DNA of 64,000 nt from an uncultured Nitrospirales bacterium (lineage in GTDB: Bacteria > Hydrogenedentota > Hydrogenedentia > Hydrogenedentales > SCBR16-9), in the NCBI GenBank assembly GCA_964537975.1, contig CAZIDP010000020.1:783-64782 (forward strand). Reading direction: 5' to 3'. The stretch's first letter is position 1, and every line of letters starts with the position of its first letter. Below the pieces are notes generated by a model that was not told the DNA's origin, made no database searches, and saw only the letters and a list, made by a program, of their open reading frames with translations. The translations under genes were made by a program, and so were the position numbers. Below, in pieces: positions 4,549 through 63,524 of the stretch.

Positions 4549-4579
4549 TCCCGCCAGCTATTTATATAAACTGACGGGA
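4549..4579 (-). terminator. Rho-independent terminator after the 4631 gene
   Basis: Minus strand tcccgtcag-N13-ctggcggga followed by atttttc. Confidence 0.55.
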
Positions 4580-4630
4580 TTACTCAAAATAATTCGCCAC
4601 AAATTGTTACATTCGAAAATACCGTGAATC

Positions 4631-34012: not shown

Positions 34013-34076
34013 CATAGCCGCTGCAATCTATTTCCACTGATTATTTTGCGTGCGTTTAACAGGGAAGAACAAGAAC

Positions 34077-40557: not shown

Positions 40558-40697
40558 TCCAATATTATGATATGGTATTACGCGTTGATTTGGGAATCCT
40601 TGTTCTTATAGATAATTTCTGTCAGAATTAATATATAGTGCGTGTTTATTGTGTGCCTGCTACCTCTACCCTTGCATTAAAAGGAGCTGAAAAAACC

Positions 40698-41954: not shown

Positions 41955-42030
41955 CGGCTTTCACAACGCTCCCCTGATATTTTTATTCACTATAACAATT
42001 GATTTTTTACTTGAAAGAGGAAATGTGTCG

Positions 42031-44122: not shown

Positions 44123-44198
44123 TGCCGGATAGTCTAATTGGTAGGGCACCTGATTCTGGTTCAGGCTTGTCTAGGTTCGAGTCCTAGTCCGGCAACCA
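44123..44198 (+). tRNA. tRNA-Gln(CTG)
   Basis: TGCCGGA/TCCGGCA acceptor stem, CCTGA-TTCTGGT-TCAGG anticodon arm, GGTTCGAGTCC, CCA. Confidence 0.97.
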
Positions 44199-44230
44199 GA
44201 TTTTTTCTAAACCAAGCCAACCGCACATGC

Positions 44231-44306
44231 GGCCCGTTCATCTAGGGGTCTAGGATGCAGGATTCTCAGTCCTGTCACAGGGGTTCGAATCCCCTACGGG
44301 CTACCA
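44231..44306 (+). tRNA. tRNA-Glu(CTC)
   Basis: GGCCCGT/ACGGGCT acceptor stem, CAGGA-TTCTCAG-TCCTG anticodon arm, GGTTCGAATCC, CCA. Confidence 0.97.
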
Positions 44307-46436: not shown

Positions 46437-46690
46437 GTTCAGATTGGGCAGTCCAACTGCAATTTAATAATCGGGCAGAGAATTAATCAAGCAGAACAGA
46501 CAAGTACAAGCCAAAGCAAAAGACTTAATATGAAAACAATAATTTTACATACAAAAAACTTGAATCGGTCGAAAACATATGTTATATTAAGTTAACAACG
46601 CTTAGTTGCTAATGATTACAAACATTATTAAGTTGCCAATAAAGTAAAATTAAAATTTTATTGGATAATTGCATATGGAAAGAGAAAATA

Positions 46691-47620
46691 ATGAAGAATC
46701 GATTGAGAATTAAAGGATTTACCCTCATAGAGTTGTTGGTTGTCATAGCCATAATTGGGATACTGGCGGCCATTTTATTACCCGCTCTTGCAAGAGCACG
46801 TGAAGCAGCTCGCCGTGCGTCTTGTGCCAACAATTTGAAGCAACTTGGTGTGGTCATGAAAATGTATTCGGGTGAATCACGTGGTGGCTTGCTTCCACCA
46901 CGAATGATATATGGCTGCCCCAATCCGCAAACCGGAGCAGTCAGTTTAAGCGATACCATGATATTCAATGGCAATTCCGTTATGCCGGATTATCTGGCTG
47001 ACGCAAATATCGTATGGTGCCCTTCCTGGGTTGTACAGTCTACCCCACTTGAAAGGTATGACGAGGCATATGGTAACAACAATGGCATAATCGAGCCTTG
47101 TGAGCTGCGCAAAGAACCTTATAACTACATGGGCTGGCTGGTTTTACACGATGCCAACTTATTGGGCTTTGAACTTCTGGGAGTAGAGGGCACGGATGTT
47201 GGTGGCAGGCATTCAACCGATGAATACCGGGGTACCCCCCTCGGAGATTTAGCCACGATGAACGTGCAGTCATGGGGTAGACAAAGTGATGAGAATTTCA
47301 CCGTGGTACGTCAGGAGCATTTTGGGACACAAGCAGGCGGGGGCAATACCCTGTACCGTTTACGAGAGGGCATTGAACGCTTTCTTATTACTGATATCAA
47401 CAATCCTGGCAGCAGTGCGCAATCACAAAGTGAAATTCCTGTGATGTGGGACCATGTAACCACATTGTCGAAAGATTTTAATCACCTGCCTGGTGGCGCA
47501 AATGTGTTGTACCTGGATGGCCACGTCACATTCCACCATTATCCCGGAAACAAATTTCCGGTTACGGAAGACAGTGCCCGAACTTTCGGTCGGTACAACC
47601 GCCCCTTTAACCTTTTTTAG
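46691..47620 (+). CDS. DUF1559 / prepilin-type N-terminal cleavage-methylation protein with H-X9/10-DG tail
   Basis: KG|[42 protein letters not shown]; WCPS; [15 protein letters not shown]. Confidence 0.92.
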
Positions 47621-48039: not shown

Positions 48040-49323
48040 TTATATGCCCCATACCGGTACCGTATAGGCAGCAGAAGGCATGATGTAATATGTTGGATTA
48101 TGGTTTCCAATGCGCTCAAAAAAGATTTGGCATGCCTGCAATGCTGTGTCAAGCGAGTCTGCTTTAACGCCACCTAGCAATTTAACCTGATCGCAATTCA
48201 TCTCTGTAATAAACCAGGCTTGAGGTGCTCTTTGCAAGGTAGAGAGTGCCGTTTGTCCGTTGATTTCTGCTTGAGTTCGCAATTGTTTCATGATTGCTTC
48301 AGCACTACCCAGATGCACCCATTTTTCAAAACCATGCCCACCATACCCTTCTGGGGCTGGTGCCAGAAATAGAATACGGCCATTAAGCTTGATAACTTGA
48401 GATGCATTAAAGAGCGCTTTGTGACTTTGAATATAATTTCGCGCATTACCCGCGGAAGCAATTACAAAATCTGCTTTTTTACTAAGCGGAACACCATAAC
48501 ACTGCTGTGCAAAATCCGCGGCATGACGATGGGCGGTTTCCAAGTCTCCAACAAACAGCTCTGAGATATCACCAGAACGATTCAAAACGGTGTTTATAAT
48601 GAAACTGCATGGAGCAAACCGTGCAGCTTCCATCATATCCAGAGCGACAGGATTCGCATCCATATCACCGATCTTTACCAGCGGGTCGATTCTGTCTATG
48701 ACAGGGTCCAGATTCAGTGCGTGATTGTGTGCTATGGTTGACAGACCGGCAAGTCCTGGCACCAGTGATTTACGCCCGCCACCAAAGCCGCCAAAATAGT
48801 GGTAAACTACCGTTCCTGTTGTAATAATCTGATCTGCTTCAAAGAGAAAGCGGTTAAGATAAACTGGCGTACCGCGTGATGTTTCGCCACAATATTGCAA
48901 CCGGTTGGTATCTTCCGGATTGTGTGTTATTGTCTGTTCTTTAAAGCGTGAATAGACGGCCTCTCCCAGTATATGTTGTTCTTCTGTCGGTGTAGGACCC
49001 CGGTGTGAGCCGGTTGAATAGATGAAACGGATATTCGCGTCAGGAATTCCTTTACTATTCAATGCCACTATCAATGTGGGCAATACTTTTTCAATACCGG
49101 TTGTGCGAAAGGAGTCGGACACCACGATTAAGACACGATCAGATGATTTAAACTTTTCCAAGGCATGACCTGGCATCCCAAATGGACTCGCCATTCCTTC
49201 ACGTAATGCCTGGGAAATGTTTTCAACAGGTGGTGCATTTGAAACATCGGGTACACCAAGACAAGTTGCCCAATCTATCGAAAATGTTACTATTTTTTCA
49301 CCATATTTAATAGTGTGTTTAAT
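48040..49323 (-). CDS. LarA-family nickel-pincer racemase/epimerase homolog
   Basis: VSDSFR, STGSHRG, GETSRGTPV, HYFGGFGGGRKSLVPG. Frame continues upstream of ATG 49194 to a non-canonical start (ATT 49323) behind AAAGGAG. Confidence 0.85.
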   Translation of the reverse strand: MKHTIKYGEKIVTFSIDWATCLGVPDVSNAPPVENISQALREGMASPFGMPGHALEKFKSSDRVLIVVSDSFRTTGIEKVLPTLIVALNSKGIPDANIRFIYSTGSHRGPTPTEEQHILGEAVYSRFKEQTITHNPEDTNRLQYCGETSRGTPVYLNRFLFEADQIITTGTVVYHYFGGFGGGRKSLVPGLAGLSTIAHNHALNLDPVIDRIDPLVKIGDMDANPVALDMMEAARFAPCSFIINTVLNRSGDISELFVGDLETAHRHAADFAQQCYGVPLSKKADFVIASAGNARNYIQSHKALFNASQVIKLNGRILFLAPAPEGYGGHGFEKWVHLGSAEAIMKQLRTQAEINGQTALSTLQRAPQAWFITEMNCDQVKLLGGVKADSLDTALQACQIFFERIGNHNPTYYIMPSAAYTVPVWGI

Positions 49324-49620
49324 GATGATGACTCCTTTGTAGAATCCATATACTTTAGAAAAAAAAGTTTCCCCAGGAAATTATACCAAACAGATGCGCG
49401 ACAGTAAGTAACTCCAGGAATTCACCGCTGCCTTGGATATCTTTCCAGGCATCATTCGCCACAAGCCTTATCACTCTTGAATTCCGATGAAATGTTCTCC
49501 ATCACAGTGAGGGACTTCTCACTAAATATTGCCCGGTGATATTCAGTAATCAGCCAATCGCCTGGTGCTTTGGTATCCTGGTCGATATCAAGATTTTATC
49601 GAATGTAGTGTGTAAACGTT

Positions 49621-50562
49621 TTATCCGCCGAAGGCACGATCATACCGGCCCATGATACGGGGACCATCCAGTGTGACAACCCAGGGGGAGTCCTGGGGAT
49701 ATTTTTCATAGGTTACATGGCCATCCATGTATAAGACATTGATGCCGTAAAGATGTGAGGAACCGGTAACTTGCGGGGTCAGATGGTCCCACATTACCGG
49801 TATCGCACTTTGGGTGATGGCACTTGCGGCTGGATTGTTAATATCCGAGATCAGAAAACGCTCGACCCCTTCCCGCAGGCGGTACATGGTGTTTCCACCA
49901 CCCAATTGGGTACCTTGAAACTGGGGTGAAAAAGCGAAATCCCTGTCGGATGCAGCACCAAAAGTATTGATGTTTGCAATGGCCAGCTCCAGGAAGGGTG
50001 TGTTCAGCCAGTCGGCATCATCGAAGCGACCACCAGGTCCACTGCCTTCTGTGCCCGCTTTGTCGCCCAACACATTACGTGCATCCATAATCAACCAGCC
50101 GGTATAGTTGAAGGGCGCCTTCAACAGTTCTTCAGGTTCAATAATGCCGTTGCTGTTTCCCGAAGCGATACCCGCTCTTCGGACCCCTTCATCATACCGT
50201 GACAATGGTGTCGCGCCGCCACTGCCCCAGGAAGGACACCAGACCACGTTCAGGTCTGACAGATAGTCGGGGAATACCGACGGCCCATTGAAAATCATGG
50301 TATCGGACAGGCCGCCATAGATATTGTAGATCATGCGTGGTGGAAATAGTTGACGCGAAGATTCGCCCGCATACATTTTGAAAGCGATGCTCATCTGCCG
50401 GAGGTTGTTCTGACAACTGGCACGATTCGCCGCTTCACGTGCTCGACTCAGGGCTGGTAGTAGAATAGCTGCCAGTATGCCAATGATGGCAATAACCACC
50501 AACAACTCTATGAGCGTGAATCCGGCTCGTTGCCAGATTTTTATTTTAGTTCTGAAATACAT
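49621..50562 (-). CDS. DUF1559 / prepilin-type protein with H-X9-DG motif (paralog of 46691)
   Basis: AG|FTLIELLVV...SCQNNLRQ; WCPS; [14 protein letters not shown]; shares YRLREG(V/I)ERFLI(S/T)DINNP with the 46691 copy. Confidence 0.92.
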
Positions 50563-50600
50563 CCCGTATCTCCCAGTCAGCAATTGACATCAAATGCAGT

Positions 50601-51311
50601 TTATTTGCGGATTTCCAACCACCAACCCACATCAGGCTCTTCAATGAGGCGATAATTCTGTATACCAGCTTCCTCCGCCAGATCAAGCAACCCCTCTTTC
50701 GGGCCGTCCCATCCTGCTGGTCTCTCACGATCTCCGGTATCCCAACTCAGTCGCCAGGCGACCAATCGATCCCGTTCTTCTTTGTCCAGCAAACGGCCAA
50801 ACCCGCCGTGACCTATGAAGGCAACACCACCTGGCTTCAACACGCGGTAGGTTTCCCGCAGCGCCTGCACCTTGTCTGGTATGAAGGGAATTGTGCCGCG
50901 GCTGAAAATAAAATCCGCGAAATTGTCTTTAAACGGAAGGTCTTGCCAATCACCCTCTACTGGAATCACCCGGCCAGTCAAACCCGCCTCATCCACCATA
51001 ACCCCCAGCAGTCGCATGGCCCAGGAGTCGATATCAACGGCGTATCCAATAATGTCGGTTTTACTGGCCAACTCAATCAGGAAAGGGCTGCAACTGCTTC
51101 CGATATCCAGCGCGACGCCTGAGGACAGATTATAATCTTCAATCACCTGCCGGGCCATGGGTTCCCAGACCGCAGCGAAATTACCCGTGGTATGTCGTTC
51201 ATGCCCAGGCACTTTTTCCTTGAGCATGGATACATAATTGTCCTGTTCGGACACTGATGTATCTGATACAAGCAGTATACAAATTGTACACAACTTTGTG
51301 ATGTGTTTCAT
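50601..51311 (-). CDS. Class I SAM-dependent methyltransferase with a signal-peptide-like N-terminus
   Basis: ALDIGSS, AVDID, EGDWQDLPFKDNFAD, YRVLKPGGVAFI; AAAGGA before ATG 51311. Confidence 0.85.
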   Translation of the reverse strand: MKHITKLCTICILLVSDTSVSEQDNYVSMLKEKVPGHERHTTGNFAAVWEPMARQVIEDYNLSSGVALDIGSSCSPFLIELASKTDIIGYAVDIDSWAMRLLGVMVDEAGLTGRVIPVEGDWQDLPFKDNFADFIFSRGTIPFIPDKVQALRETYRVLKPGGVAFIGHGGFGRLLDKEERDRLVAWRLSWDTGDRERPAGWDGPKEGLLDLAEEAGIQNYRLIEEPDVGWWLEIRK

Positions 51312-51345
51312 TGATGAATATCCTTTCTGAAACATGTGAACTGCC

Positions 51346-52152
51346 TCACGGCTGGGCTGGCAGTTCGTAATGGTGTTTTATCAAAACTTCTTGTGCCGCA
51401 CGCATCCGCAAGAATGCAATAAACTCCTCAGCCGCATGCACATCAGGTGTCCTGACAGATCGCGCAATACCTACGCCGACCACGTTGCTTTTGTCTTCAG
51501 GAATCGAAAGCCATTCGCTTCTGTCAGTCATTCGTGCGAGTGATTCCCATACAAGTGCTACATCGATGCGACCGGTACGTATGGCGTTGGCCAGTTCCGG
51601 CGCTGTTGCATCTTGAACTACGATGTTGTGTTGTATGTCTTCGAGTTCCATATCATAATTTTTCAGAACACCGACTGTAACACGCCCCAGAGCCGACATC
51701 AAATCGGGCATTCCAACACGTACACCCGATTGCGTCAAATCTTTGATCGATAAAACAATGTGCGGCATTCCGCTGCGCAGCATAAGAACGGGTTTGGTTT
51801 GTGCTATTACATGGATATCATCAACCCGTCCGGCATTTCGAGCTTGATCCAAAAACGAAATATCAACAGCCAGAAACAGGTCTGCTATATCCGGATCTTC
51901 TATAAATGTATCCAGTAATGTGTTGGAAGCGGCATACTCCGAGAGTATTCGAATATCTGAGCGGCGCTGAAATGTACCGATGATTTCTTCCAGGACAGGA
52001 CGCAGTGCGACATCACAGTACAGGGTAAGCACACGCGCTTCCTGAGAAGACTCTGTTCTAACTTTCCCATGATTTACAGACCATAATACCAGAGTCAGAA
52101 GGAGGAGCAGGATTATGACGATGAAATATTTACTTTTCAGGATGCAATTCAT
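51346..52152 (-). CDS. ModA-like (molybdate/tungstate-type) substrate-binding protein, membrane-anchored
   Basis: N-terminal TM, YAASNTL, ADLFLAVD, GVRVGMPD..SALG, DVALVWES, AEEFIAFL. Confidence 0.8.
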   Translation of the reverse strand: MNCILKSKYFIVIILLLLLTLVLWSVNHGKVRTESSQEARVLTLYCDVALRPVLEEIIGTFQRRSDIRILSEYAASNTLLDTFIEDPDIADLFLAVDISFLDQARNAGRVDDIHVIAQTKPVLMLRSGMPHIVLSIKDLTQSGVRVGMPDLMSALGRVTVGVLKNYDMELEDIQHNIVVQDATAPELANAIRTGRIDVALVWESLARMTDRSEWLSIPEDKSNVVGVGIARSVRTPDVHAAEEFIAFLRMRAAQEVLIKHHYELPAQP

Positions 52153-52231
52153 CCAGACTCCCAGGGGTGTCATTGGTTAAAATTTTGGCAATTTATTTGC
52201 ATAGTATTAATACTACACTAAAGTATTACAT

Positions 52232-53227
52232 TTACAAAGAATCAGCCGTTTCGGCGCTGTCGAGGAATCCCCCCAGGCCACCGGGGGCTGTGGTCACCTC
52301 AACGGTCAAAGGCTTAATTCGGCCCGCCCAGTCTGTTGTTGTCAATAAGTCGGTCCCCGGATTAAGTGACTTGACTGTGCAGGAGCATGGCCCGGTGAGA
52401 AACTCGGCCGTTTTTCGAACCATATAGGGGTTAATCCCTTTGCCTATAAGTGGCTCCATGATCAGTCCGCGGCCAAAAATCGGAAATACCATCGGCTCAC
52501 CCGTATAATCATGCAAATCAATTTCACTGGACATCAGCATGGCGATCAGCATTTTTTCTGCGAGGTCTTCACGCGATAATCGAAGCAATTCAAACTGTAT
52601 GGGAGATATAGTAATATCATCCACACCCCATTTTTCGATATCCGGTATGACCAAAGTCTGTTGAAGGCGGCCTAACTCACGCTCCAGCAGGATTGCTGCT
52701 TCAGTGTCCTGACGCGTATTGCCGCTTTCCAACAACACCCATACCACCGAAACTCGATTGATAAGCTGCTCACAGATTTTCTGCCGCAGGGGTGAGTCCA
52801 CCAATGCGTCAAAGTTTTCCTGGTTTAACGCACCCGACCAAATCGGCACGCGACGATTTGAAGAGACGGAAGGGTAGTATACGACCATCCACGGGAAAGA
52901 GTCTGGAACTTCGCCCTGAAGGGCAGAATGGGCTAAAAGGCGTTCATTCGAATCTGCCTGCACACGGCGCAGCCGCAAGTTCACCGGCATGCTGCCTTTA
53001 TCTCCTTGTGATATGGCCTGGATTTGTTGTAAGAGTGCTTCTTGCTCTTCGGTGAATTCTCCATTGTCGAAGACATAAACCTCGTATGGGTCTTGTTCCC
53101 ACCACTCCAGTGAATACTGGTAAACAGGAATCGGACAACTCCAAAGCGGGAATGAAACAAGGCATACGAATATCCATATGCACACGGGTAACTTTTTTTT
53201 CGCTGCTATTTTAATAGGTAATTTCAT
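52232..53227 (-). CDS. Conserved hypothetical exported protein (CPIPVYQYSLEWW...GPCSC family)
   Basis: Signal peptide, CPIPVYQYSLEWW, FPIFGRG, GPCSCTVKSLNPGTDLL; resembles a PVC-group hypothetical family (from recall, unverified). Confidence 0.8.
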   Translation of the reverse strand: MKLPIKIAAKKKLPVCIWIFVCLVSFPLWSCPIPVYQYSLEWWEQDPYEVYVFDNGEFTEEQEALLQQIQAISQGDKGSMPVNLRLRRVQADSNERLLAHSALQGEVPDSFPWMVVYYPSVSSNRRVPIWSGALNQENFDALVDSPLRQKICEQLINRVSVVWVLLESGNTRQDTEAAILLERELGRLQQTLVIPDIEKWGVDDITISPIQFELLRLSREDLAEKMLIAMLMSSEIDLHDYTGEPMVFPIFGRGLIMEPLIGKGINPYMVRKTAEFLTGPCSCTVKSLNPGTDLLTTTDWAGRIKPLTVEVTTAPGGLGGFLDSAETADSL

Positions 53228-53289
53228 ACTGATTGCCTTTGTCTCTGGAGAAAATCTAACCTTGCTGCAATCCTGAATTCAGGTCAGCT

Positions 53290-53958
53290 TCAAGATTGCA
53301 ACATACCCGCTTTAATATTGTACACATCGTCAAAGCCTTCGGTCCGTAACCCATGGGTTGCCATGACCACCGCACCACCCTTACGCACATACTCCCACAG
53401 ACAATCCAAAATAATGTGCTCGTTATCAATATCGAGATTCCCGGTAGGCTCATCGGCCAACAACAACGCGGGATTCGCGATTAGCGCCCGGGCCAGGGCC
53501 ACCCGCTGGCGTTCGCCTGTACTTAGCTCAGAAGGATAATGCGCCAATCGTTCACCCAAACAGAATTGCTCTAGTAAAGCTTTCGCCCGTGAATCCAAAT
53601 CCGGAATGGCCAGCGCTATTCCCGGCATTTTTACGTTGTCGAGCACGGTGAGGTAGGGCACCAGGTAGAACTGCTGAAAAACAAAGCCGATGTTTTTTCC
53701 ACGAAAACCAGTTCGCTTGTCCGCGGACATCGAATACATATCCTGCCCCTTGACAACGACATTTCCGGTGTCCGGACGCAGCAATCCACCTGCTGTCAGC
53801 AAGAGCGTTGTTTTACCACTGCCACTGGGCCCCCGAATTATTTTAAAGGTCTCTTTCTCAACACGTATCGAAACATCATCAATGGCAACGATATGACTTC
53901 CGTTCCGTTGATAGTGTTTGGACACCTGCTCTATTTTCAAAGTCTCATCTTGGGTCAC
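53290..53958 (-). CDS. ABC transporter ATP-binding protein (LolD/MacB type)
   Basis: GPSGSGKT, FVFQQFYL, LSTGERQRVALARAL, LADEPTGNLD, ATH; GTG start behind GGAGG. Confidence 0.93.
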   Translation of the reverse strand: MTQDETLKIEQVSKHYQRNGSHIVAIDDVSIRVEKETFKIIRGPSGSGKTTLLLTAGGLLRPDTGNVVVKGQDMYSMSADKRTGFRGKNIGFVFQQFYLVPYLTVLDNVKMPGIALAIPDLDSRAKALLEQFCLGERLAHYPSELSTGERQRVALARALIANPALLLADEPTGNLDIDNEHIILDCLWEYVRKGGAVVMATHGLRTEGFDDVYNIKAGMLQS

Positions 53959-54007
53959 GGTCTGCCTCCAAACCAGCATAGTTCTACTATAAAAAGAAAC
54001 GGAAACT

Positions 54008-55309
54008 TCATTCTTCCCGTAAAATTACTGCCGGGTCCAACTGCGCTGCTTTTCTGGCAGGAATCCAACCGGCAACAACTGCCAGCAAGGGTGTTCCCAG
54101 GATTACCAGCAGCAACATCACGGGGTGGATGAGCTGAACAAACTCTGTGCTCCATAGAGCAATACCCTCCCAGGATGCGCCAGCCAGTAATCCGGGGATG
54201 CTCCCCAGAACGGCGCCCAGGCCACCCATCAGCGCCGCTTTGATTAAAAAAATGCTCATGATGGTGCTTTCCCGCACCCCCACCGTTCTCATGATGGCTA
54301 TCTCGCCTCTTCGTTCTTTCACATTGCTGGATATCAGGAAAAATATCCAGATGGCAGCTCCGGTGAGTACAACCGGGATGAGAAACCGAACCAGTTGTTG
54401 CCGTTGCACACCCAAATGGGCACGGTATGCAATTTCAGAATCGATGGCTGTTTCACGCATTTCTGCGGCTCTGGCCCGGGCTTCAAATCGCGCACGCAAG
54501 ATGGTGCCAAACTCCATGACCTGTATATCCGGCAGGATTTGCTGCACCTCAGATTCCACCATTCCGAACGCTTCGAAATTACAGACACATTCCAATGCCA
54601 GGATGCCGTTGATCTTGCCTTCGAGACCAAACCATTGCTGTACCTTTTCCAGATCACACCATAGCGTGATATCGTCGTCATTGCCTCTGCGACTATGAAC
54701 GCGATGTACCGTGAATTCTTCCCCTTGAAATGTTATTTGATCACCAGCATTGATACCGGTGATACGGGCAATGTCGTAGCCGGCTTCGATGGTGCCCTGT
54801 GGAAGCGTTTCACGAATCGGATTGCGGTACCTGCCTTCATCATCAAGAAACTGGGGTTTTTCGAAATTGGGAACCTGGCCCATGATGCCGCACAAGATGA
54901 TTTCCTGTTCCTTCTCTTCCCAGGTAGTACGTTTTTGTAAAACGGGAAACAGGTGATTCAAATTTTTAATGCCCCCGGTTGACAACGCGAACACATACTC
55001 CAGAGGCATATACGTATTGGGACTCCCGTCAATTCGCAGCGAGTCTATGGATTGGTCTTCATGCAATATCAACACGTTGTAGCCCATGTCTCGCATCATC
55101 AGACGGTAGTCATCTTCCAGTTTGGCCATATCTGCACGGGTTTCGTGTTCTTTTTGGTTGATTATCTGTTCTGTCTTGATCTCGTGGGCGGCTAATAAGG
55201 TAACTGCCCCCATGACAAGTCCCAGGGCAACCGATATACAGAGCAATCCGATTGCGAAATGGGTTTTGTTATAAAATATCTCGCGCCAGATAATATTCCA
55301 TTTACTCAT
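54008..55309 (-). CDS. ABC transporter permease (FtsX/MacB/LolC-E type)
   Basis: One TM, large periplasmic domain, three TM; NVKERRGEIAIMRTVG; PARKAAQLDPAVILREE. Confidence 0.92.
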   Translation of the reverse strand: MSKWNIIWREIFYNKTHFAIGLLCISVALGLVMGAVTLLAAHEIKTEQIINQKEHETRADMAKLEDDYRLMMRDMGYNVLILHEDQSIDSLRIDGSPNTYMPLEYVFALSTGGIKNLNHLFPVLQKRTTWEEKEQEIILCGIMGQVPNFEKPQFLDDEGRYRNPIRETLPQGTIEAGYDIARITGINAGDQITFQGEEFTVHRVHSRRGNDDDITLWCDLEKVQQWFGLEGKINGILALECVCNFEAFGMVESEVQQILPDIQVMEFGTILRARFEARARAAEMRETAIDSEIAYRAHLGVQRQQLVRFLIPVVLTGAAIWIFFLISSNVKERRGEIAIMRTVGVRESTIMSIFLIKAALMGGLGAVLGSIPGLLAGASWEGIALWSTEFVQLIHPVMLLLVILGTPLLAVVAGWIPARKAAQLDPAVILREE

Positions 55310-55373
55310 AGGTTCATGTCCCGCAGTTGCAGTGTAAATTTGTTTGTAAAAAATATGTTGCCCTTAACGGAAA

Positions 55374-58300
55374 TTAATCCACAGCGGCGGCAATCTCGAC
55401 AACATTCGTAAAAAGCTCAATGCCATTGATAAAGGGGTCGCGTTCCGCCTCTTCAGATTTCAGGAACTCAATGGTCATAGTCATATCACTTAGCACGGTA
55501 AATTCTTCATATGTGCCACGCAGATGTCCCCCGGTTTTTTCCATTATGTCATAGTTGCTTACGATTTCTTCTCCATTAACCAATACATCAAAAACACGCT
55601 CTCCGACTTCTACATCTTCTTCCAGCTCGGCAAAATGAAACCGTAGTGTATAGGTGGTATCCAGCAGATCATACAGCGTGATGCTGTTGTCTTCTTCTGT
55701 CATTTCTTTGCCGGAAGCAGCAACCCAGTCAATGCTGTCAGCAATGGTATCGGCGTTTTTCTGAATGGCGGATGGATGTCTGCGCATCGTTCCTTCTTCA
55801 TCGAACCATACCCGGCCCGAATCATGGTCTACGCGGCGGCCTGGGGCGCCCAGGTTAATGCCATAGCCTTCCGGGTTTGGAGGTGAAGCATCATAGCGGG
55901 TCCAATTTTCAATGTTAGTATCGCCAGGCATATGAATCATAGCCAGAGAGGTCTGGTTCTGATAACTGCAGGTACATGATCGGGTGTAATCCAGTGCATT
56001 GACCAGGCCTTCTGCCGCGATCATGTTGGCGGTACAACCGGAGCGAAATCCACTGAATGTACCGGTGCCGGTGTCATGTTCCAGATCAAAATAACCTGCG
56101 TAACCCGTGCGATACAGCAGCAAATATTTACTCGCGTTTAATGTATTGCAACCATACGTCCTGCTGTAAGACCAGCCACTACTTTCACCTGTCAGTGGTT
56201 GCACACGCAACCAGTCTTCACCGGTCAACAGGGAACGGGCTGTCCCGGGGCGACCGGGGATCAGCATGTCCCCAATGATTGCAGCAGGCACTGTAAAGCT
56301 GCCACTGCGTTCCCACAACATATCGCCCGTACTGCCACGCCGTGCCAGCATCTCCCGCGGTTCATCTTCAATCGTCCGGCGCAGGTCCTGGCTCCCGCTT
56401 TCGATTAAAATGTCATGCGCTTTGCTGTACAACAGAAATGTCCCGAAAACATTGGCATCGTTTTCCCACAGGACATCACCGGTACCCAGTTCCAGCGCAA
56501 ATATCCGGGAAACATCCTCCGGTACCTCTCCCCTGCGTGCCAGATGTTCAATGGCATTTTCTGATAAACCATCGATCAAAAACAGGGTATTTCCCGAACT
56601 GATTATGGCATTGTGCCGGAAACCGACCTTCGCTTCCCGCGTCCACAAGACATCACCACTGTAACGGTTCATTACCACAACAATGCCACTCGATGTTCCA
56701 CTGTAACTTTCTAACCAACCGAGTTCCTGGTCTTCAAAGATGTGTGGTTCCGTGGTTGATATGAGGAAATCTCCCGAAACGCTGATATGACCCCAATCGG
56801 GCGCTTCATCGCCGTATAACGCTTGCACTGAGCGCCCAGGCAGGGCGAACTGGTTGATTACTTCTCCCGTAGCCGCGTTCAGCCGGTGAATTTTGCTGTC
56901 ATAACGTAAATACACACTGTCTGGAAGCGTTACGAAAGGGCTGCCGATGTAGGTTGCACCCGGTATGTTGGTCATGTAGACCTGTTCCCCATCAGTCCAA
57001 CGTTCTTCCAGTTCCATATTGGTGAATGGGTGGCCAATCCCGGGATACGGCATGTCCCACAGTTGCCGCCCAGTATAAACACAGCGCGCAGCGATGTTCT
57101 CAACACCCAGATATACCTGCCGTCCCCCGGCAATCTGAGGTCGTGGCCCTCCCGCATGCCGCGGTAAAATATTGTGGTTGTTGGGGCCGCCAAACCACAG
57201 CAAGCCCAGCGGTAAGCGCGCCAATTGTTCTTCAGAAACAAGTGTATTGGCCGAGTCATGGAGCTGATGGGTCCATTGCCCTGCACCTGTCAAAGGACCA
57301 CCGCGTTGCGCGAATACAGCATGATCGATAGCTTCCACATGTACTTTATCGACATTGGCCGCCCGCGCGGCTTCGGTCACGGCTTCTACTGAATCAGAAG
57401 GCACACTAAAATATGCCACGCCACCATAGGGCCGCAGTAAGTTTAGTATGCTGGCCCAGTTTGCATTGTCGTGTAAAATACCTGCCTGTGTTGCGTCTTC
57501 ACTTGCCACCAGGCTGAACAAATAGGGCTGTACCGAAAAGGTCGCAGGATTGTCCTCAATAACCGCGACACGCTTTCCATATGAACCAGTCGATACCAGT
57601 TCATCGCGTAATGTACGTGCTACCAGTTCGTCATTTTCAACAACAACAATATGCAGGTCACTCCGTATCATTAACTCTTTGAGGAGGTCACCTGAGCCAT
57701 GCCCCAATAACAGCGCGTAGCCCTCCGTCTCTCCAAGCTCATCCAGCAAGGTCTGTGCGGTCTGAGCCCAGGCGGCAGTGCGTAACATCAAGCGTGCGGG
57801 CCGGTATGCGTGGCGTATTGGCGTTGTTTCCTCTGGGCCAAAGCAATATAAAGTGCCCTGCGTTGTCGTGACAAATAGACGCCCATGGGCGGCAATCAGG
57901 TTAAATAAATCACCATCCAATTGCTCCGCAATTAATTCATAGCATTGCGTCAGCACATCATTTTCGTTCAGCCCCATTCCATCGGCATGAACCGCATAGC
58001 CCCCGGCAGGCTTGGCCCTGAATGCTGCTTCTTTCACTTTTCCTGTATGCCGGTCTAAAAATGCGGGCGGGGTCCTGCCACCCGCCACCACCAGGGTATC
58101 TTCATTGGCCGCCAGATACCCCTGTGGAGCCAGCCCACCATATCCATAGGCGCCACCATGCGGGAGTTCGACGTAGTCCGAGCTGGTCGTGTCATTTACC
58201 CAGACCACCTCACCAGTCACCGCATTCAACGCGTAAATGAATATGCCATGCATAGGCCAGAAGCCTGCGGCGAAGTAAATGGTATCGTCCCATATTACCG

Positions 58301-59036
58301 GGCCGCCTCGTGCTGCCCAGAAATTGATGATTCGTTCATTACCAAGCAGCCGATGATCATTGGGGCCTCCTTGGAACTTCCATGCCAGCGTACCATCTTC
58401 CGCGTGAACACAATATAGATGGCCATCATCCGAGGTAAAATATACATAATCTTTCCAGGCGACCGGGGCGAGCCGAACTGGCGCATTGGCATAAAATCGC
58501 CATATCTCAGCGCCATCGGAAATAGCATAGGCAGTAACACTATCGGTTGCATTAGACGGCACAAAAATGCGATTGCCCTTGACCACAGGCGAATACGAGA
58601 GGTCAAAATCCAGTTTGTTACGATGGTCCCACTGATGCGGCCAGGCACGCTTAGGCTCTGGCAATTCACGTACCCATTGCAGATGCAGGTCAGAGGCAAA
58701 TCGCAATGGTGTGGCTGCGCTTCTGCCCGCGTCATATTGCCACATGGGCCAATCTAAAAAGCCCGCCTTTTCCAACGCGGTATATGCTTCCTCTCCCCCG
58801 ATACTACCCAGCTCCCGGGCGACCGCTTCCCGCACAATCCGGTTTTCATGATTGAGCAAAGACGTTGTAAGATCAACAAAGACTTCCTGTACCTGTATCG
58901 CAGCATTTGTTTGCCCTCCTGGGTCTTCTCCAAGCGCATTCAACTGTAAAACAATGCTGAAAACCAACAACACCGCACCAGCACTTACCAATCCAGAACC
59001 AAATAATGACGAGAAAGACCGATTCCAAAAACGCAT
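55374..59036 (-). CDS. Exported multidomain protein: HEAT repeat, PQQ-type beta-propeller, methyltransferase-like domain, second propeller, malectin-like domain
   Basis: Signal peptide; IVREAVARELG; DWPMWQYDAGRS; WRFYANAPVRLAP; ALLLGHGSGDL...LRPYGG; C-terminal LRFHFAELE...GERVFDV. Confidence 0.85.
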   Translation of the reverse strand: MRFWNRSFSSLFGSGLVSAGAVLLVFSIVLQLNALGEDPGGQTNAAIQVQEVFVDLTTSLLNHENRIVREAVARELGSIGGEEAYTALEKAGFLDWPMWQYDAGRSAATPLRFASDLHLQWVRELPEPKRAWPHQWDHRNKLDFDLSYSPVVKGNRIFVPSNATDSVTAYAISDGAEIWRFYANAPVRLAPVAWKDYVYFTSDDGHLYCVHAEDGTLAWKFQGGPNDHRLLGNERIINFWAARGGPVIWDDTIYFAAGFWPMHGIFIYALNAVTGEVVWVNDTTSSDYVELPHGGAYGYGGLAPQGYLAANEDTLVVAGGRTPPAFLDRHTGKVKEAAFRAKPAGGYAVHADGMGLNENDVLTQCYELIAEQLDGDLFNLIAAHGRLFVTTTQGTLYCFGPEETTPIRHAYRPARLMLRTAAWAQTAQTLLDELGETEGYALLLGHGSGDLLKELMIRSDLHIVVVENDELVARTLRDELVSTGSYGKRVAVIEDNPATFSVQPYLFSLVASEDATQAGILHDNANWASILNLLRPYGGVAYFSVPSDSVEAVTEAARAANVDKVHVEAIDHAVFAQRGGPLTGAGQWTHQLHDSANTLVSEEQLARLPLGLLWFGGPNNHNILPRHAGGPRPQIAGGRQVYLGVENIAARCVYTGRQLWDMPYPGIGHPFTNMELEERWTDGEQVYMTNIPGATYIGSPFVTLPDSVYLRYDSKIHRLNAATGEVINQFALPGRSVQALYGDEAPDWGHISVSGDFLISTTEPHIFEDQELGWLESYSGTSSGIVVVMNRYSGDVLWTREAKVGFRHNAIISSGNTLFLIDGLSENAIEHLARRGEVPEDVSRIFALELGTGDVLWENDANVFGTFLLYSKAHDILIESGSQDLRRTIEDEPREMLARRGSTGDMLWERSGSFTVPAAIIGDMLIPGRPGTARSLLTGEDWLRVQPLTGESSGWSYSRTYGCNTLNASKYLLLYRTGYAGYFDLEHDTGTGTFSGFRSGCTANMIAAEGLVNALDYTRSCTCSYQNQTSLAMIHMPGDTNIENWTRYDASPPNPEGYGINLGAPGRRVDHDSGRVWFDEEGTMRRHPSAIQKNADTIADSIDWVAASGKEMTEEDNSITLYDLLDTTYTLRFHFAELEEDVEVGERVFDVLVNGEEIVSNYDIMEKTGGHLRGTYEEFTVLSDMTMTIEFLKSEEAERDPFINGIELFTNVVEIAAAVD

Positions 59037-59048
59037 ATATAAATATCC

Positions 59049-62000
59049 TTATTCAAATTTTTTAGCAACTGCAATATCACCGCTATTGGCAATAAGTTCA
59101 ATGCCGCTGATTATGGGATAAAGCTCCGCGTTGGAAGCCTTGCGTAATGCAACGGTCATGGTCGTTCCGCTATCCACATAAAATTCTTTTACAACAGGCA
59201 AGAATGCACTGCCCGTTTCTGCATAAATATCAAAATCCTGATAAACCACTTCATCATTAACAACAATGTCGAATACGCGTTGTCCAGAAGTAACGCTGGT
59301 GTCATGCTCTGCAAAATGCAATCGTACTGTGTAATTTGTGGTGAGCAGATCGTACAGCGTCAGGGAGTCCTGGTCGACCTCCGTTATTTCGATTGCTGAC
59401 GCAGCAACCCAGTCAATGCTTCCTTCACTTTCCAGGATGGCAGAAGCATGACGCCGGTGATTGCCTGGTAAATCGTGCCAAATCCGCCCGGAGGTGTGAT
59501 CTATGCGGCGACCCGGAGCACCAAAATTAATCCCATACCCCAAGGGGTCTGGTAGCGCGCCATCATATAAAGCCCAGGATTCAATACCGGGCATGTCGGG
59601 CATGTGAATCAGGGCCAGTGAAGTCTGGTGCTGATAACTGCACGTACAGGTCCTGGTGTAGTCAGGCGCATTCAATACCCCATCAGCCACCACCATATTA
59701 TTGGTGCATCCTGAGCGAAATCCACCAAAGAACCCGGTACCCGTGTCATGTTCGAGATCAAAATAGGCAGCGGCACCGGAACGGAAAGTGATGAGGTGCT
59801 CACTCAAGTTGTGACTGTTGCAACCATACCGACGATTGTATGCCCAGCTTGCACTTTCTCCCGTGAGTTCTTGCGTGCGCATTTTCCGCTCACCGCTCAG
59901 TAGATTGAGCGCATACCCAATTCCAGACCTGGCCGCGGGTGCCATGTAGATTTCATCCTTACGTATGGCCAATGGTCCCCAATACGAAGTAAGCGCGGGA
60001 TTCTCCCACAACGGCTCACCTGTATTCCCATTAAATGCCGAGATGCGGTCTCCTGGCTCATCCTGTAACATACGCAAACCACCGGGCCGGCCACCTTGAA
60101 TCAGGATGTCATATTCGGATGAATACCCCAGCCAGGTACCAAAAACACCCGTCGGATTTGTCCATAGTGTGTCACCGGTTAGCAGGTCCAGTGCCAGCAG
60201 CAGGGCATTTCCAGGTTCTTCACCGCGCCGCTGCAGGTGTTCCAGAACACTATCAGAGAGTCGATCAATCAGGTATAGACAATTGGCACCAGACACGATC
60301 GCATTGTGACGGAAGCCAGTTTGCGCTTCACGTATCCACAATACTTCGCCACTATGCCGGTCCAGAGCAATCAATCGGCGACTGGAGGTGCCTTCCCAAC
60401 CCCGGCCTTTGATGTCGGCCATCGTTTCAAAAACAGTAGTATAGTTACCTTCGCCTTCGAAGACCTGCGGCTCGACGGTGGTTATGATTACATCACCCTG
60501 AATGCTGAGATGTCCCCAGTCCGGCTTACCTTCCAACTCAGGCGCGACCGGAAGCTGAAATTCCGCCATAACCTCACCGGTTTCCGTTGACAGCCGGTAG
60601 ATACGAGTCATATACCGCACATATATTCCATCTGGTAAGGAGACAAATGGGCTTCCCAATTGATTGGCACCAATACCATCCGCATTGTGCATGAATACTT
60701 CCTGGCCACTCTCAAACTGCTCCTCCAGTTCCAGGTCCGTAAAAGGATGCCCCAGCCCGGGGAAGGTCTGCTGCCACATTTCACGCCCGGTATAAACGCA
60801 GCGGGCACTGACGGTGTCGTTGCCAGGCAGAATGACCTTGCCTGCAATGACCTGTGGAATGGGGCCGTGGCCATGACGCGGTAGAATATCGCTGTTGCAC
60901 GGTCCACCAAACCAGAGAATACCCAGAGGTGTTTTGGTTCGGTTATCCGGTGAAAAATTGGTATTGGAAGCATCGGCATACTGGTGTGTCCAGTGCCCGG
61001 CACCCGTAAGCGGGCCCTCCCGTTGCGCAAATATATACTCGTGACGTAGTTCAACGCGTACCCGGTCTACATCGGCAGCCCTGGCCGCATCCGCAAGCTG
61101 CGTGAGTTTGTCATCATCAGCACCCAGATAAGCGATGCCCCCATAGGGCCGCAGTCGCTCCAGAATATAGGCCAGTGCAGATGCTTCGGCGCTGATGCCA
61201 GCGGCAGTACTGTCTTCACTCACAAGCAGGCTGAACAGATAGGGCTGTACCTTGAAAGCGGCTGGCTCGTCTTCAATGACAGCTACACGCCAACCATACA
61301 CACCCGCATCCGCAAGCTCATCACGCAAGGCGCGTACCCTGGTTGCGTCCGGTTCCACAACCACAATGTGGAGTTCGCTGCGCAAGAGCAATTCTATGAG
61401 CAGATCGCCTGAACCTGCCCCGAGCATCAATGCGTACCCTTCAATTTCGCCCAGTTCATCCACCAGGCTTTGCGCGGTTTCTGCCCATTGGGCAGTCCTG
61501 GGTGACAGCCGGGTTGGAGACAAATCATGTCGTACAGGTGTGTCGCTGTCAGGCGCAAAACAATACAGACGCCCCGAAGTGGTGGTGACATACAAACGAT
61601 CATGGGCAACCAGCGCTTCGAAGACCTCCCCGTCGATTTGATGCTTCTGCTTTTCTACCTGTTGCGACAACATCGTGTTTTCTGCCCGGCCTATGCCGTC
61701 GATATTTACGGCATATCCTCCCTGGGGCTTGGCCCGTAACGACATTTCCAGGACTTCTCCGGTATGCCGGTCCAGGGTGGCCGGAGGTGTTCTGCCGCCC
61801 GCAACGATCAACACTTCATCTGAAGCCGCTATATATCCTTGCGGAGCGATACTGCCGACGCCTGTTGCGCCATCGTGTGGCAGTTGCACATAGGCTGAGC
61901 TTGTGGTGTCATTGACCCACACGACATCCCCGGTTTCCGCATTCAGGGCATAGATAAAAACACCATGCATCGGCCATATGCCGGCAGCAAAATAGACGGT

Positions 62001-63524
62001 GCCGTCTTTGATTACCGGGCCGCCACGGGCCGACCAGAAACTGATGATCCGTTCATTGCCCAGCAGGCGATGATCGGACGGTCCACCACGGAACTTCCAG
62101 TTCAAACTGCCTGACGCGGCGTCAACGCAATACAAATGGCCATCATCCGAAATAAAGTAGACCTTGTCTTCCCAGGCGACAGGCGCAAGACGCACCGGGC
62201 CATCTGTGTAAAAGCGCCACAATTCTTGGCCATCCGCTGTATGGTAGGCGGTGACACTGTCCGTCACATTGGAGGGTACGTAAATCTGATCGCCGAGTAC
62301 AACAGGTGAATAAGAAATATCGAAATCCAGTTTGCCCCGGTGGTCCCACTGATGCCGCCAGGCCCTTTGGGGCTCGGGCAAGGTACGTACCCAGGCCAGA
62401 CCCAAATCATCGGACAAAACAACGGGAGTCTTTCCACTGCGAGCTGCGTCATATTGCCACATCGGCCAGTCCTCATAGGCAATGTATAGCGATGCCAGGG
62501 AGGAGGAATAGGTCATCCCCGAAGCAACGTCTGTGGCGATAACCTGGTACGCGCCTGCGTGCGCGTCGGTGACTTCAGGTAGGGTGTAGACATTTTCAGT
62601 GCTTGCGCTGTACCCCGGAATTTCTTCGCCATTAAAATACCAGGTGTAGGTAAGGTTTCGTTGCGTGTTCCAGAGTTCTACGGGACCTACGGTGACCGGC
62701 CTTCCTTTGGGAGCAGGTATATCTGTCAGGTCCGTCAGGAAAGACAAGGGCACCCACCGGGCACCCACGATGACACCATCATGCTGGCCCGCAGCCAAAT
62801 CTTTGATAAGGTTATCGTCACTATTATCGAAATCCCAATAGGCGGCAAGACCGGGCGTATCCACATCCAGCTTTTCGTTCATATCTTCCAGCGCTTCCGA
62901 TTGGGTTCGAGCAATGCGCCAGAACCGCATCTCGGCAATGTCACCGTTAAACGGGAAGTGATCGGGATGCGAAGACAGGTGAAGTGGGCCCGAGGGATTG
63001 GTTTCTCCCGGAGCAGGTGTCACAGTTGCTTCATGCCAGGCGTCCTGTTGCTTGTCATACACCCGCAAGGTTTGCGTGTTCGCGTCACGGTCCAGCACTG
63101 CCTGTACAAACACCCAACGCCCTTTGATGTCGGCGATGTGTGCGTCTGAATGCGTATCTGTGCGCTGACCATCACTGGCAATCACAAAATTCCAGCCAGC
63201 TCCTACATTCTGGCCAACATATATTCTGTCACCACCCCGCCATTCCAGGGGAAGATTCCAGGCGGTAGCGTCCGGGCTTGTCCTGGCCCAGAACTCGATT
63301 GAGAAGCTGTCAGAACCCGGGATACAGGCGACAGGCTCGGCTACTTCTACATAATCATTGCTGCCATCGAATTGTAACGCATGCGGTTGTGCGTGCGTAG
63401 TACCACTGGGTAGAATTCCGCACATCGACAATATCAACCATGTAATCTTGAAAACCAGAGAACCTGGAAAGAAACACTTGGGCATTCGAAGATTACATAC
63501 ATGCAGGCACGGCAACTTATTCAT
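59049..63524 (-). CDS. Exported multidomain paralog: LamG/ConA, Ig, PQQ-type propeller, methyltransferase-like domain, propeller, malectin-like domain
   Basis: ALQFDGSNDYV...FNGDIAEMRFW...YWDFD (LamG); YTWYFNG...AGAYQV (Ig); DWPMWQYDAARS; ALMLGAGSGDL; VRLHFAEH...GQRVFDI. Confidence 0.87.
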   Translation of the reverse strand: MNKLPCLHVCNLRMPKCFFPGSLVFKITWLILSMCGILPSGTTHAQPHALQFDGSNDYVEVAEPVACIPGSDSFSIEFWARTSPDATAWNLPLEWRGGDRIYVGQNVGAGWNFVIASDGQRTDTHSDAHIADIKGRWVFVQAVLDRDANTQTLRVYDKQQDAWHEATVTPAPGETNPSGPLHLSSHPDHFPFNGDIAEMRFWRIARTQSEALEDMNEKLDVDTPGLAAYWDFDNSDDNLIKDLAAGQHDGVIVGARWVPLSFLTDLTDIPAPKGRPVTVGPVELWNTQRNLTYTWYFNGEEIPGYSASTENVYTLPEVTDAHAGAYQVIATDVASGMTYSSSLASLYIAYEDWPMWQYDAARSGKTPVVLSDDLGLAWVRTLPEPQRAWRHQWDHRGKLDFDISYSPVVLGDQIYVPSNVTDSVTAYHTADGQELWRFYTDGPVRLAPVAWEDKVYFISDDGHLYCVDAASGSLNWKFRGGPSDHRLLGNERIISFWSARGGPVIKDGTVYFAAGIWPMHGVFIYALNAETGDVVWVNDTTSSAYVQLPHDGATGVGSIAPQGYIAASDEVLIVAGGRTPPATLDRHTGEVLEMSLRAKPQGGYAVNIDGIGRAENTMLSQQVEKQKHQIDGEVFEALVAHDRLYVTTTSGRLYCFAPDSDTPVRHDLSPTRLSPRTAQWAETAQSLVDELGEIEGYALMLGAGSGDLLIELLLRSELHIVVVEPDATRVRALRDELADAGVYGWRVAVIEDEPAAFKVQPYLFSLLVSEDSTAAGISAEASALAYILERLRPYGGIAYLGADDDKLTQLADAARAADVDRVRVELRHEYIFAQREGPLTGAGHWTHQYADASNTNFSPDNRTKTPLGILWFGGPCNSDILPRHGHGPIPQVIAGKVILPGNDTVSARCVYTGREMWQQTFPGLGHPFTDLELEEQFESGQEVFMHNADGIGANQLGSPFVSLPDGIYVRYMTRIYRLSTETGEVMAEFQLPVAPELEGKPDWGHLSIQGDVIITTVEPQVFEGEGNYTTVFETMADIKGRGWEGTSSRRLIALDRHSGEVLWIREAQTGFRHNAIVSGANCLYLIDRLSDSVLEHLQRRGEEPGNALLLALDLLTGDTLWTNPTGVFGTWLGYSSEYDILIQGGRPGGLRMLQDEPGDRISAFNGNTGEPLWENPALTSYWGPLAIRKDEIYMAPAARSGIGYALNLLSGERKMRTQELTGESASWAYNRRYGCNSHNLSEHLITFRSGAAAYFDLEHDTGTGFFGGFRSGCTNNMVVADGVLNAPDYTRTCTCSYQHQTSLALIHMPDMPGIESWALYDGALPDPLGYGINFGAPGRRIDHTSGRIWHDLPGNHRRHASAILESEGSIDWVAASAIEITEVDQDSLTLYDLLTTNYTVRLHFAEHDTSVTSGQRVFDIVVNDEVVYQDFDIYAETGSAFLPVVKEFYVDSGTTMTVALRKASNAELYPIISGIELIANSGDIAVAKKFE

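Follow-up and report, generated by a model that had tools for sequence, protein, structure and literature searches.

ATP-binding cassette (ABC) systems of type VII are described as acting via adjacent periplasmic partners, as in FtsEX-EnvC, LolCDE-LolA and YbbAP-TesA. ABC-assisted assembly of a beta-propeller protein in the periplasm is known from NosDFYL, which serves the propeller centre of NosZ (PMC7558416). Periplasmic copper proteins with closely spaced cysteines include CopG, a thioredoxin-like protein that binds copper through CxCC, and Cox11, a Cys-motif protein with two conserved cysteines (PMC7558416); among beta-propeller enzymes, tetrathionate hydrolase (Tth) is cysteine-independent and restricted to acidophiles (PMC10859504). 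Here we analyse a 64,000-nucleotide stretch of contig CAZIDP010000020.1 (assembly GCA_964537975.1, positions 783 to 64,782; hereafter the window) from an uncultured member of the Hydrogenedentota. It encodes an FtsX-type permease and its ATPase, a secreted tandem thioredoxin-fold protein that we call HYP, and two large secreted propeller proteins, prop1 and prop2. A CxC motif (two cysteines separated by one residue) recurs in the permease, HYP and the propellers. Our analysis establishes that these genes form a conserved, previously undescribed envelope module with hallmark cysteines, and literature searches returned no description of a HYP-permease-ATPase-propeller cassette.

A fixed cassette with propeller genes

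The genes belong to a tightly packed minus-strand run at bases 48040-63524 of the window, with intergenic gaps of 10-64 nt from prop2 through a DUF1559 pseudopilin-like gene. Its main features are, with sizes in amino acids (aa):

59049..63524, minus strand: prop2, 1491 aa, with signal peptide, LamG, Ig-like domain, BamB-like propeller, methyltransferase-like insert, four-Cys propeller (C1235, C1273, C1293, C1295) and malectin domain
55374..59036, minus strand: prop1, 1220 aa, a prop2 paralogue without the LamG/Ig head
57837..58754, minus strand: prop1 residues 95-400, BamB/PQQ_2-like propeller, holding the invariant C209 (58410-58412)
57342..57779, minus strand: prop1 residues ~420-565, an insert with a Rossmann (class-I methyltransferase-like) domain immediately ahead of the four-Cys propeller
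55872..57329, minus strand: prop1 residues 570-1055, four-Cys propeller domain, beginning at a conserved W-T-H motif
56148-56150 (C963), 56034-56036 (C1001), 55974-55976 (C1021) and 55968-55970 (C1023), minus strand: cysteines at the end of the four-Cys propeller of prop1
55407..55829, minus strand: prop1 residues ~1070-1210, malectin-type carbohydrate-binding domain
54008..55309, minus strand: permease of the FtsX/MacB/LolC class (type VII ABC), 433 aa, four transmembrane (TM) segments
54398..55177, minus strand: permease periplasmic domain, residues 45-304, with the invariant AL[EQ]C[VIL]C (C241 54587-54589, C243 54581-54583)
53290..53979, minus strand: ABC ATPase of the LolD/FtsE/MacB subfamily, 229 aa, with intact Walker A, signature and Walker B and without conserved cysteines
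52232..53227, minus strand: HYP, 331 aa, secreted tandem thioredoxin-fold protein of no Pfam family
53135-53137 (C31, predicted mature N-terminus), 52385-52387 (C281) and 52379-52381 (C283), minus strand: HYP Cys triad
51346..52173, minus strand: ModA-like SBP_bac_11 protein, 275 aa, membrane-anchored, with a conserved C53 (52015-52017)

The closest relatives of the locus are found in metagenome-assembled genomes of Hydrogenedentota, and the locus is also present in public sludge-metagenome runs, all of them DNA runs. Through HYP we collected 80 genome loci, which come from Hydrogenedentota, several orders of Planctomycetota, Verrucomicrobiota, Lentisphaeria, Bacteroidota, Armatimonadota, WS1, Sumerlaeota and Latescibacterota, a spread over at least nine phyla. 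HYP adjoins the permease in 75 of the 80 loci and the ATPase comes next wherever the contig permits; HYP, permease and ATPase are thus a fixed cassette. A propeller gene is adjacent in ~50 of these loci and a ModA-like protein in ~30, and several loci have two to four propeller genes next to one cassette, a pattern of one service cassette with several propeller clients. When the search started from the propeller instead, HYP and/or the permease were found in 35 of 80 metagenomic loci, and in 14 of the 25 loci of at least 15 kb. We regard the module as a type VII ABC system to which a partner family (HYP) and a client family (the propellers), both new, belong.

The CxC motifs and their conservation

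The first-pass annotation of the window had reported a CxC motif in four products of this cluster, and translation confirms all four on the minus strand, in a tight same-strand run: GPCSC in HYP (C281/C283, 52379-52387), LECVC in the permease (C241/C243, 54581-54589), RSCTC in prop1 (C1021/C1023, 55968-55976) and RTCTC in prop2 (C1293/C1295, 59640-59648). The further propeller cysteines that it had noticed in GCN and SGCT contexts are also there (GCN within 'YGCN'; C963 and C1001 in prop1, C1235 and C1273 in prop2), and it was right to caution that the propeller copies are not independent. They are paralogues, 57% identical over 1151 aa, so that the CxC occurs independently three times. These three occurrences do lie in unrelated folds, namely a type VII ABC periplasmic domain, tandem thioredoxin folds and a beta-propeller, and in extracytoplasmic parts, since the permease loop is periplasmic by topology and HYP and both propellers have N-terminal signal or anchor segments. 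Two conserved cysteines had been overlooked, the third invariant cysteine of HYP (C31) and C53 of the ModA-like protein. After shuffling of residues, the probability of a CxC is 0.085 for HYP, 0.042 for the permease and 0.043 for prop1 (product ~1.5e-4), and the motif occurs in 3 of the window's 34 other open reading frames (ORFs) with 150 aa or more; these chance figures alone are suggestive, not decisive.

The permease has four hydrophobic segments and matches Pfam FtsX above the cut-off (E 2e-15). PDB sequence matches to MacB, LolC/E, LolF and YtrF cover residues 300-432, the membrane part only; the periplasmic domain has no PDB sequence match and resembles MacB_PCD faintly (E 0.05, 14 bits vs a 27-bit cut-off). 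Its CxC lies in the 260-aa loop between TM1 (15-44) and TM2 (305-331), which should be periplasmic if the topology of MacB, LolC and FtsX applies. C241 and C243 are cysteines in 65/65 syntenic homologues (31-70% identity) and in 120/120 database homologues; C24, C140 and C218 are not conserved. The motif is flanked by an alternating hydrophobic pattern and has a beta-branched middle residue, a setting into which two thiols on one strand face would fit better than a strained intramotif disulfide. In NCBIfam the ATPase scores best against LolD (188 bits) and FtsE (169 bits), under the equivalog cut-off in each case, and its nucleotide-binding motifs are conserved. A role of the permease as LolCDE lipoprotein extractor was rejected (lolCE 62 bits vs a 362-bit cut-off). 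We also dropped a link to arsenic, drawn from the likeness of (A)LECVC to the 'ELCVCDL' box of ArsR and from weak ArsM-like matches of a methyltransferase downstream in the run, since that methyltransferase occurs in very few related loci.

In HYP, C281 and C283 are cysteines in 115 of 120 and C31 in 118 of 118 among the matches listed from 230 database matches, and three further cysteines vary among database homologues. The triad is intact in 77 of 79 syntenic ORFs. A profile search of 1.84 billion representatives retrieved 3,640 clusters at 50% identity (2,455 at E <1e-30), and of the top 50%-representatives not already in hand (27-46% identity to the query) 137 of 143 have the complete triad. 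The CxC belongs to the most conserved stretch of the family, TGPCSCxVKxxNPGxDLL..DW, and Arg or Lys residues are adjacent to the motif cysteines. Residue -1 before C31 is Ala in 115 of 135 sequences and residue -3 is Ala, Val or Leu in 109 of 135. Because this resembles an A-x-A site of signal peptidase I type, and because C31 is the first residue of a confidently modelled strand within the folded domain, C31 most likely starts the mature protein, with a free N-terminus, in the motif C-x-[VI]-P-V. We rejected HYP as a lipoprotein or Lol substrate, since a strict lipobox precedes C31 in only 12 of 135 sequences and the cysteine is part of the folded domain.

The AF2 model of HYP (120 sequences; mean predicted local distance difference test, pLDDT, 88.4; predicted template modelling score, pTM, 0.84) has two thioredoxin-like domains, and its best Foldseek matches in the PDB are ERp57 b-b', PDI-like proteins, QSOX1 and calsequestrin (E ~1e-4, probability 0.97-0.99, TM-score 0.2-0.25), with archaeal protein disulfide oxidoreductases also among the nearest folds. 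Neither CxxC nor CxxS stands at the thioredoxin active-site positions, where domain 1 reads DNGEF and domain 2 a conserved ESGN. After the last helix comes the CxC, in a block of lower confidence (pLDDT 68). HYP has no family in Pfam (at E 0.01, and member by member at E 0.1) or NCBIfam, and PDB sequence searches with the single sequence and with a 120-sequence profile found nothing. The Pfam searches likewise excluded the copper chaperones CopG, Cox11 and Sco (DUF411, CtaG_Cox11, SCO1-SenC) as its identity. Mean-field direct coupling analysis of 198 HYP sequences, which addressed the proximity of C31 to the CxC, gave an output dominated by gap artefacts.

In prop1, C963, C1001, C1021 and C1023, spaced C-x37-C-x19-C-x-C, are cysteines in 30/30 syntenic homologues (24-67% identity), and the propeller four are kept in 57/57 database homologues and in 75/75 metagenomic ones, with or without a cassette close by. 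C209 is invariant too; C365 and C652 are not. The model of residues 95-1220 (pLDDT 90.1, pTM 0.90) places the four cysteines in loops, where 10-residue blocks have pLDDT 71 and 77, below their surroundings. Its best Foldseek match is Tth of Acidithiobacillus ferrooxidans (E 4e-13, TM-score 0.53-0.59 on the target, root-mean-square deviation 6-7 A, 14% identity), followed by BamB and PQQ alcohol dehydrogenases. We nevertheless rejected all three identities: the resemblance to Tth is one of fold only, since the known enzyme works independently of cysteine; PQQ_enz_alc_DH scores 24-42 bits against a cut-off of 480, with Pfam PQQ below cut-off for prop1; and assembly_YfgL (BamB) scores 44-50 bits against 285, the propellers being multidomain proteins of 1220 and 1491 aa vs a lipoprotein of ~390 aa.

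Some cassettes are flanked by a second propeller class, of 1000-1100 aa, which BLAST links to prop1 via the BamB-like part only. Its cysteines are spaced alike, with 38 residues between the first two and 19 more before the CxC, and hhalign of prop1 570-1055 against second-class residues 196-627 gives a probability of 99.9 (E 8e-37) with the Cys columns matched. Its domains follow the order signal peptide, methyltransferase fold, four-Cys propeller and BamB-like propeller, of which the order in the window (BamB-like propeller, methyltransferase-like insert, four-Cys propeller, malectin) is a circular permutation. In both, the methyltransferase fold always immediately precedes the four-Cys propeller (57342-57779 in the window; 2418-5687 in locus L071; 3984-7256 in locus L029), from which it follows that the conserved unit is a methyltransferase-fold domain directly before a four-Cys propeller, in Sec-exported proteins. 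The inserted domain of prop1 (57342-57779) has no significant Pfam match, and its class B relatives match Methyltransf_25 with 31.3 bits (cut-off 27); the glycine loop for S-adenosylmethionine (SAM) is kept in propeller class A and degenerate in class B. The extracytoplasmic role of a SAM-type fold in exported propellers is unexplained, there being no evident source of SAM outside the cytoplasm. Relatives of the propellers bear varied carbohydrate-binding add-ons, such as LamG, discoidin, GH2 sugar-binding and Ig domains.

The possibility that these cysteines are not conserved among homologues is therefore clearly contradicted, the motif cysteines being near-invariant in all three families. 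As only they are invariant while other cysteines drift, and as the three families are syntenic across phyla, the CxC motifs likely mark a shared function rather than a coincidence. This is the part of the earlier proposal of a shared chemistry that stands; the soft-metal hand-off and the thiol/disulfide relay that it offered as examples are two candidate forms which that chemistry might take.

The ModA-like protein and the molybdenum/tungsten-type neighbourhood

With the ModA-like protein, which has an N-terminal signal or anchor segment, the products of the cluster that keep a conserved cysteine outside the cytoplasm number five. C53, a cysteine in 30 of 31 syntenic homologues, lies inside the N-terminal anion-binding motif, which reads C-D-V-A-L where A-A-A-S-L is expected, three residues before the canonical Ser position (Ala here). 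With this Ser replaced and a TIGR01256 score of 42 bits vs 62.5, the protein was rejected as a ModA molybdate-binding equivalog.

In the Planctomycetaceae the cassettes continue into a longer molybdenum/tungsten (Mo/W)-type neighbourhood, with a double SBP_bac_11 protein, a permease like ModB/Mo_ABC_porter, a WtpC-like ATPase, a MoaD/ThiS-like protein of 92 aa that ends in GG, and a MoeB-like protein:

L035, 9998-17929: extended Mo/W-type neighbourhood, also in L016, L026, L067, L044 and L081

L081, a Brocadiaceae locus, shows a similar gene arrangement. The double SBP_bac_11 protein scores above the cut-off of the modA model (117 bits), and the other importer matches fall below curated cut-offs. 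This extension is present in ~10-16 of the 80 loci; the window has only the single ModA-like gene. From its gene content, the extended synteny points to a sulfur or thio-oxyanion cargo at least as much as to a metal.

What the cysteines may do

The explanation that we favour, tentatively and at somewhat less than even chances, is an ATP-driven thiolate hand-off in which a soft metal, sulfane sulfur or a thio-oxyanion passes from the permease CxC to the HYP triad and on to the four-Cys site of the propeller. It starts from what was observed (motifs that hardly vary, conserved synteny, the folds, the placement of the motifs outside the cytoplasm, an intact ATPase), and it supposes contact between the parts, a direction of transfer, free thiols and the nature of a cargo. 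The system would consist of a type VII ABC machine (permease and ATPase), HYP as a secreted tandem-thioredoxin-fold carrier, and the secreted propellers as clients. ATP hydrolysis in the cytoplasm would move the periplasmic domains of the permease, which would present one thiol pair per protomer (two in the dimer) on the strand-like AL[EQ]C[VIL]C segment. From there a thiophilic cargo could move by ligand exchange to the three-Cys site of HYP, formed by the N-terminal cysteine and the CxC, and would finally reach the four-Cys site of the propeller, where it would be needed as a cofactor or as a component of the active site.

Free, functional thiols are suggested by the confinement of invariance to the motifs, by the odd number of conserved cysteines in HYP and by the permease's lone CxC, whose bulky middle residue sits on a strand-like segment of a moving domain. 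As to the cargo, the lack of conserved His and Met, the adjacent Arg and Lys, the cysteine of the oxyanion-binding protein, the company of a Mo/W-type importer and MoaD/MoeB, and the likeness of the propeller fold to Tth make us lean towards sulfur or a thio-oxyanion, and the precedents for CxC and Cys-triad sites, by analogy, towards a soft metal. A more specific version of the hand-off, which we hold to be rather unlikely in all its parts together, is that of an ATP-powered periplasmic insertion of a cofactor, metal or metal-sulfur centre following the logic of NosDFYL and cytochrome c maturation (Ccm), in which a type VII ABC machine and a tandem-thioredoxin carrier with N-terminal cysteine would mature a large and hitherto unrecognised class of Cys-ligated enzymes ('methyltransferase-fold plus propeller') in phyla that degrade polysaccharides, perhaps with sulfur, molybdenum or tungsten thio-species.

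Several points weigh against a thiolate hand-off. The cassette is absent nearby at more than half of the propeller loci, and one close propeller homologue stands alone without any cassette. In locus L004 (3869-6044), two tandem HYP paralogues lack one or both CxC cysteines (PTDHT, STCT) while retaining C31, and the permease beside them keeps its own CxC. No conserved His/Met shell of Cu(I) type was seen in HYP or in the permease domain. The thioredoxin-like fold modelled for HYP would equally suit a redox role, and we know of no type VII ABC system that carries metal or sulfur. Finally, the simplest reading of four clustered invariant cysteines in a secreted protein is a pair of disulfides.

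This last point leads to the strongest of the alternatives, according to which the cysteines would form structural disulfides only: two in the propeller, stapling three loops as in a CXC chemokine, one in HYP, and an inter-protomer or local staple made by the permease CxC, with no chemistry in common. For the propellers it is at its most plausible, their four clustered invariant cysteines being even in number, placed in loops and Sec-exported, in many cases in aerobic hosts such as Gimesia. For the module as a whole we consider it a serious, if improbable, explanation. Invariance over >160 propeller sequences down to ~24% identity, in both of the permuted architectures and in aerobic and anaerobic lineages alike, would be unusual for mere staples; three cysteines are kept in HYP, and in the permease no more than the CxC pair, with its bulky residue in between; a covalent lock on the moving domains of a mechanotransducing ABC system would be odd; and disulfides leave the strict synteny of the three families unexplained.

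A thiol-disulfide relay, the other form of shared chemistry proposed at the outset, would have HYP act in a PDI-like manner, its flexible CxC (cf. CGC of Erv2, CPC of Mia40) oxidising, isomerising or reducing the propeller cysteines, and the permease CxC would recycle HYP. The nearest folds of HYP (PDI/ERp57 b-b', QSOX and archaeal protein disulfide oxidoreductases) and the position of its CxC in a segment of lower confidence past the last helix agree with such a role. Periplasmic propeller enzymes can have oxidoreductases of their own, as aryl-sulfate sulfotransferase has in DsbL/DsbI. Nevertheless, those fold matches have low TM-scores, CxxC is missing from both canonical sites of HYP, the permease lacks conserved cysteines within the membrane as well as any quinone, flavin or haem module for electrons, and disulfide exchange needs no ATPase, so that we judge a relay to be unlikely, a little more so than structural disulfides.

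Least probable, and in our opinion a long shot, is a route of oxyanion or sulfur acquisition in which the propellers would release or capture sulfur or thio-molybdate/tungstate for transfer over the thiols to the Cys-bearing ModA-like protein and ModB/WtpC-like import for MoaD/MoeB chemistry, an idea encouraged by Tth as the best structural neighbour of the propeller, by the importer and MoaD/MoeB-like genes trailing Planctomycetaceae cassettes (with a similar order in L081) and by the Arg and Lys beside the cysteines, and opposed by the function of Tth without cysteine (PMC10859504), by importer matches that stay below curated cut-offs except for the double binding protein, by the restriction of the extension to a minority of loci and its reduction to one ModA-like gene in the window, by the fact that FtsX-type ABCs are not importers, and by the absence of a molybdenum cofactor (Moco) riboswitch from the results of an Rfam scan that covered the window and three extended loci.

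Surroundings of the module in the window

Downstream of the ModA-like gene the run continues with:

50601..51335, minus strand: class-I methyltransferase, 244 aa, with weak UbiE/ArsM-like matches
49621-50583, minus strand: DUF1559 pseudopilin-like (prepilin-type) protein
48040-49194, minus strand: LarA-like gene (nickel-pincer racemase)

Whether the methyltransferase belongs to the cluster is uncertain, as it trails it in only a few related loci. DUF1559 prepilin-type proteins at 46661-47620 (plus strand) and 49621-50583 (minus strand) flank the LarA-like gene, and DUF1559 genes neighbour the cassette in 11 related loci. The LarA-like gene aligns only from model position ~50 on and is preceded by 426 nt without an ORF (49195-49620); it may be truncated at the N-terminus or have an unrecognised start.

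Upstream of prop2, the first gene of the run, lies an AT-rich non-coding stretch of 470 nt with a promoter-like site (10/12) ~58 nt upstream of the gene; promoter and terminator scans gave results no better than shuffles. The Rfam scan, which covered Moco and other riboswitches, returned tRNAs only. Two adjacent tRNA genes are located at 44123-44303 and another at 4301-4388. The window further contains a 2-oxoglutarate dehydrogenase operon (E1, E2, E3; 37636-43410, plus strand) and a 1109-aa ORF without Pfam family (34050-37379, plus strand) with a CCCC run in its N-terminal hydrophobic segment. A GH127 beta-L-arabinofuranosidase (22615-24657, minus strand) has 'CSCC' at residues 416-419, which we take to be the site of Zn-Cys3 and Cys nucleophile known from HypBA1 and hence a precedent, in the same genome, for Cys-based carbohydrate-active enzymes.

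Significance

HYP is a large family without a Pfam model or a solved relative; the four-Cys propeller domain, like the permease subfamily with the CxC, has no earlier description either. The module occurs in Planctomycetota, Verrucomicrobiota, Hydrogenedentota, Bacteroidota, Armatimonadota and others, groups of importance for polysaccharide turnover in sludge, sediments and oceans. A metal or sulfur cargo on the cysteines would make it the first type VII ABC system for cofactor trafficking and would establish a new class of enzyme; should the cysteines be no more than disulfides, the cassette would still be a new ABC-partner-client system. The hand-off hypothesis is testable in cultivable strains of Gimesia or Planctopirus.

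Comparison with known systems

As in FtsEX-EnvC, LolCDE-LolA, MacAB-TolC and YbbAP-TesA, a four-TM permease of FtsX type with a large TM1-TM2 loop and a LolD/FtsE-like ATPase are encoded alongside a partner. Unlike in those systems, the permease has an invariant CxC and a periplasmic domain with only a faint match to MacB_PCD, and the partner is a thioredoxin fold, not LolA, EnvC, MacA or a lipase; no gene for a membrane-fusion protein is present. With NosDFYL-NosZ the module shares an ABC ATPase and permease and a small periplasmic carrier encoded beside a beta-propeller protein. It differs in its ABC class and has no homologues of NosD, NosY or NosL; moreover, NosZ has His ligands and is exported by Tat, whereas the site here is Cys-based and the export of Sec type. 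System I cytochrome c maturation (CcmABC-E, CcmG/H) offers a further likeness, since it combines release driven by an ABC ATPase with thioredoxin-like helpers and a client with a short Cys motif, but the locus has no Ccm homologues and no haem-handling protein, and its client no CxxCH.

HYP resembles CopG and Cox11 in being extracytoplasmic with closely spaced cysteines, on a thioredoxin-like scaffold as in CopG. It has no sequence relationship to them and differs by its two thioredoxin-like domains, its N-terminal cysteine and the lack of an adjacent Met pair. The fold match with PDI, ERp57 b-b' and QSOX comes without CxxC, the conserved cysteines lying instead at the mature N-terminus and past the last helix. 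The propellers, finally, are extracytoplasmic proteins with Pfam PQQ_2/BamB repeats like Tth (Af-Tth, PDB 6L8A), other PQQ-less eight-bladed propellers and BamB. Unlike Tth, they have two propellers, a methyltransferase-fold insert, a four-Cys module and carbohydrate-binding add-ons, and whereas Tth relies on a catalytic Asp325 and has no conserved cysteine, the family described here keeps four or five invariant ones.

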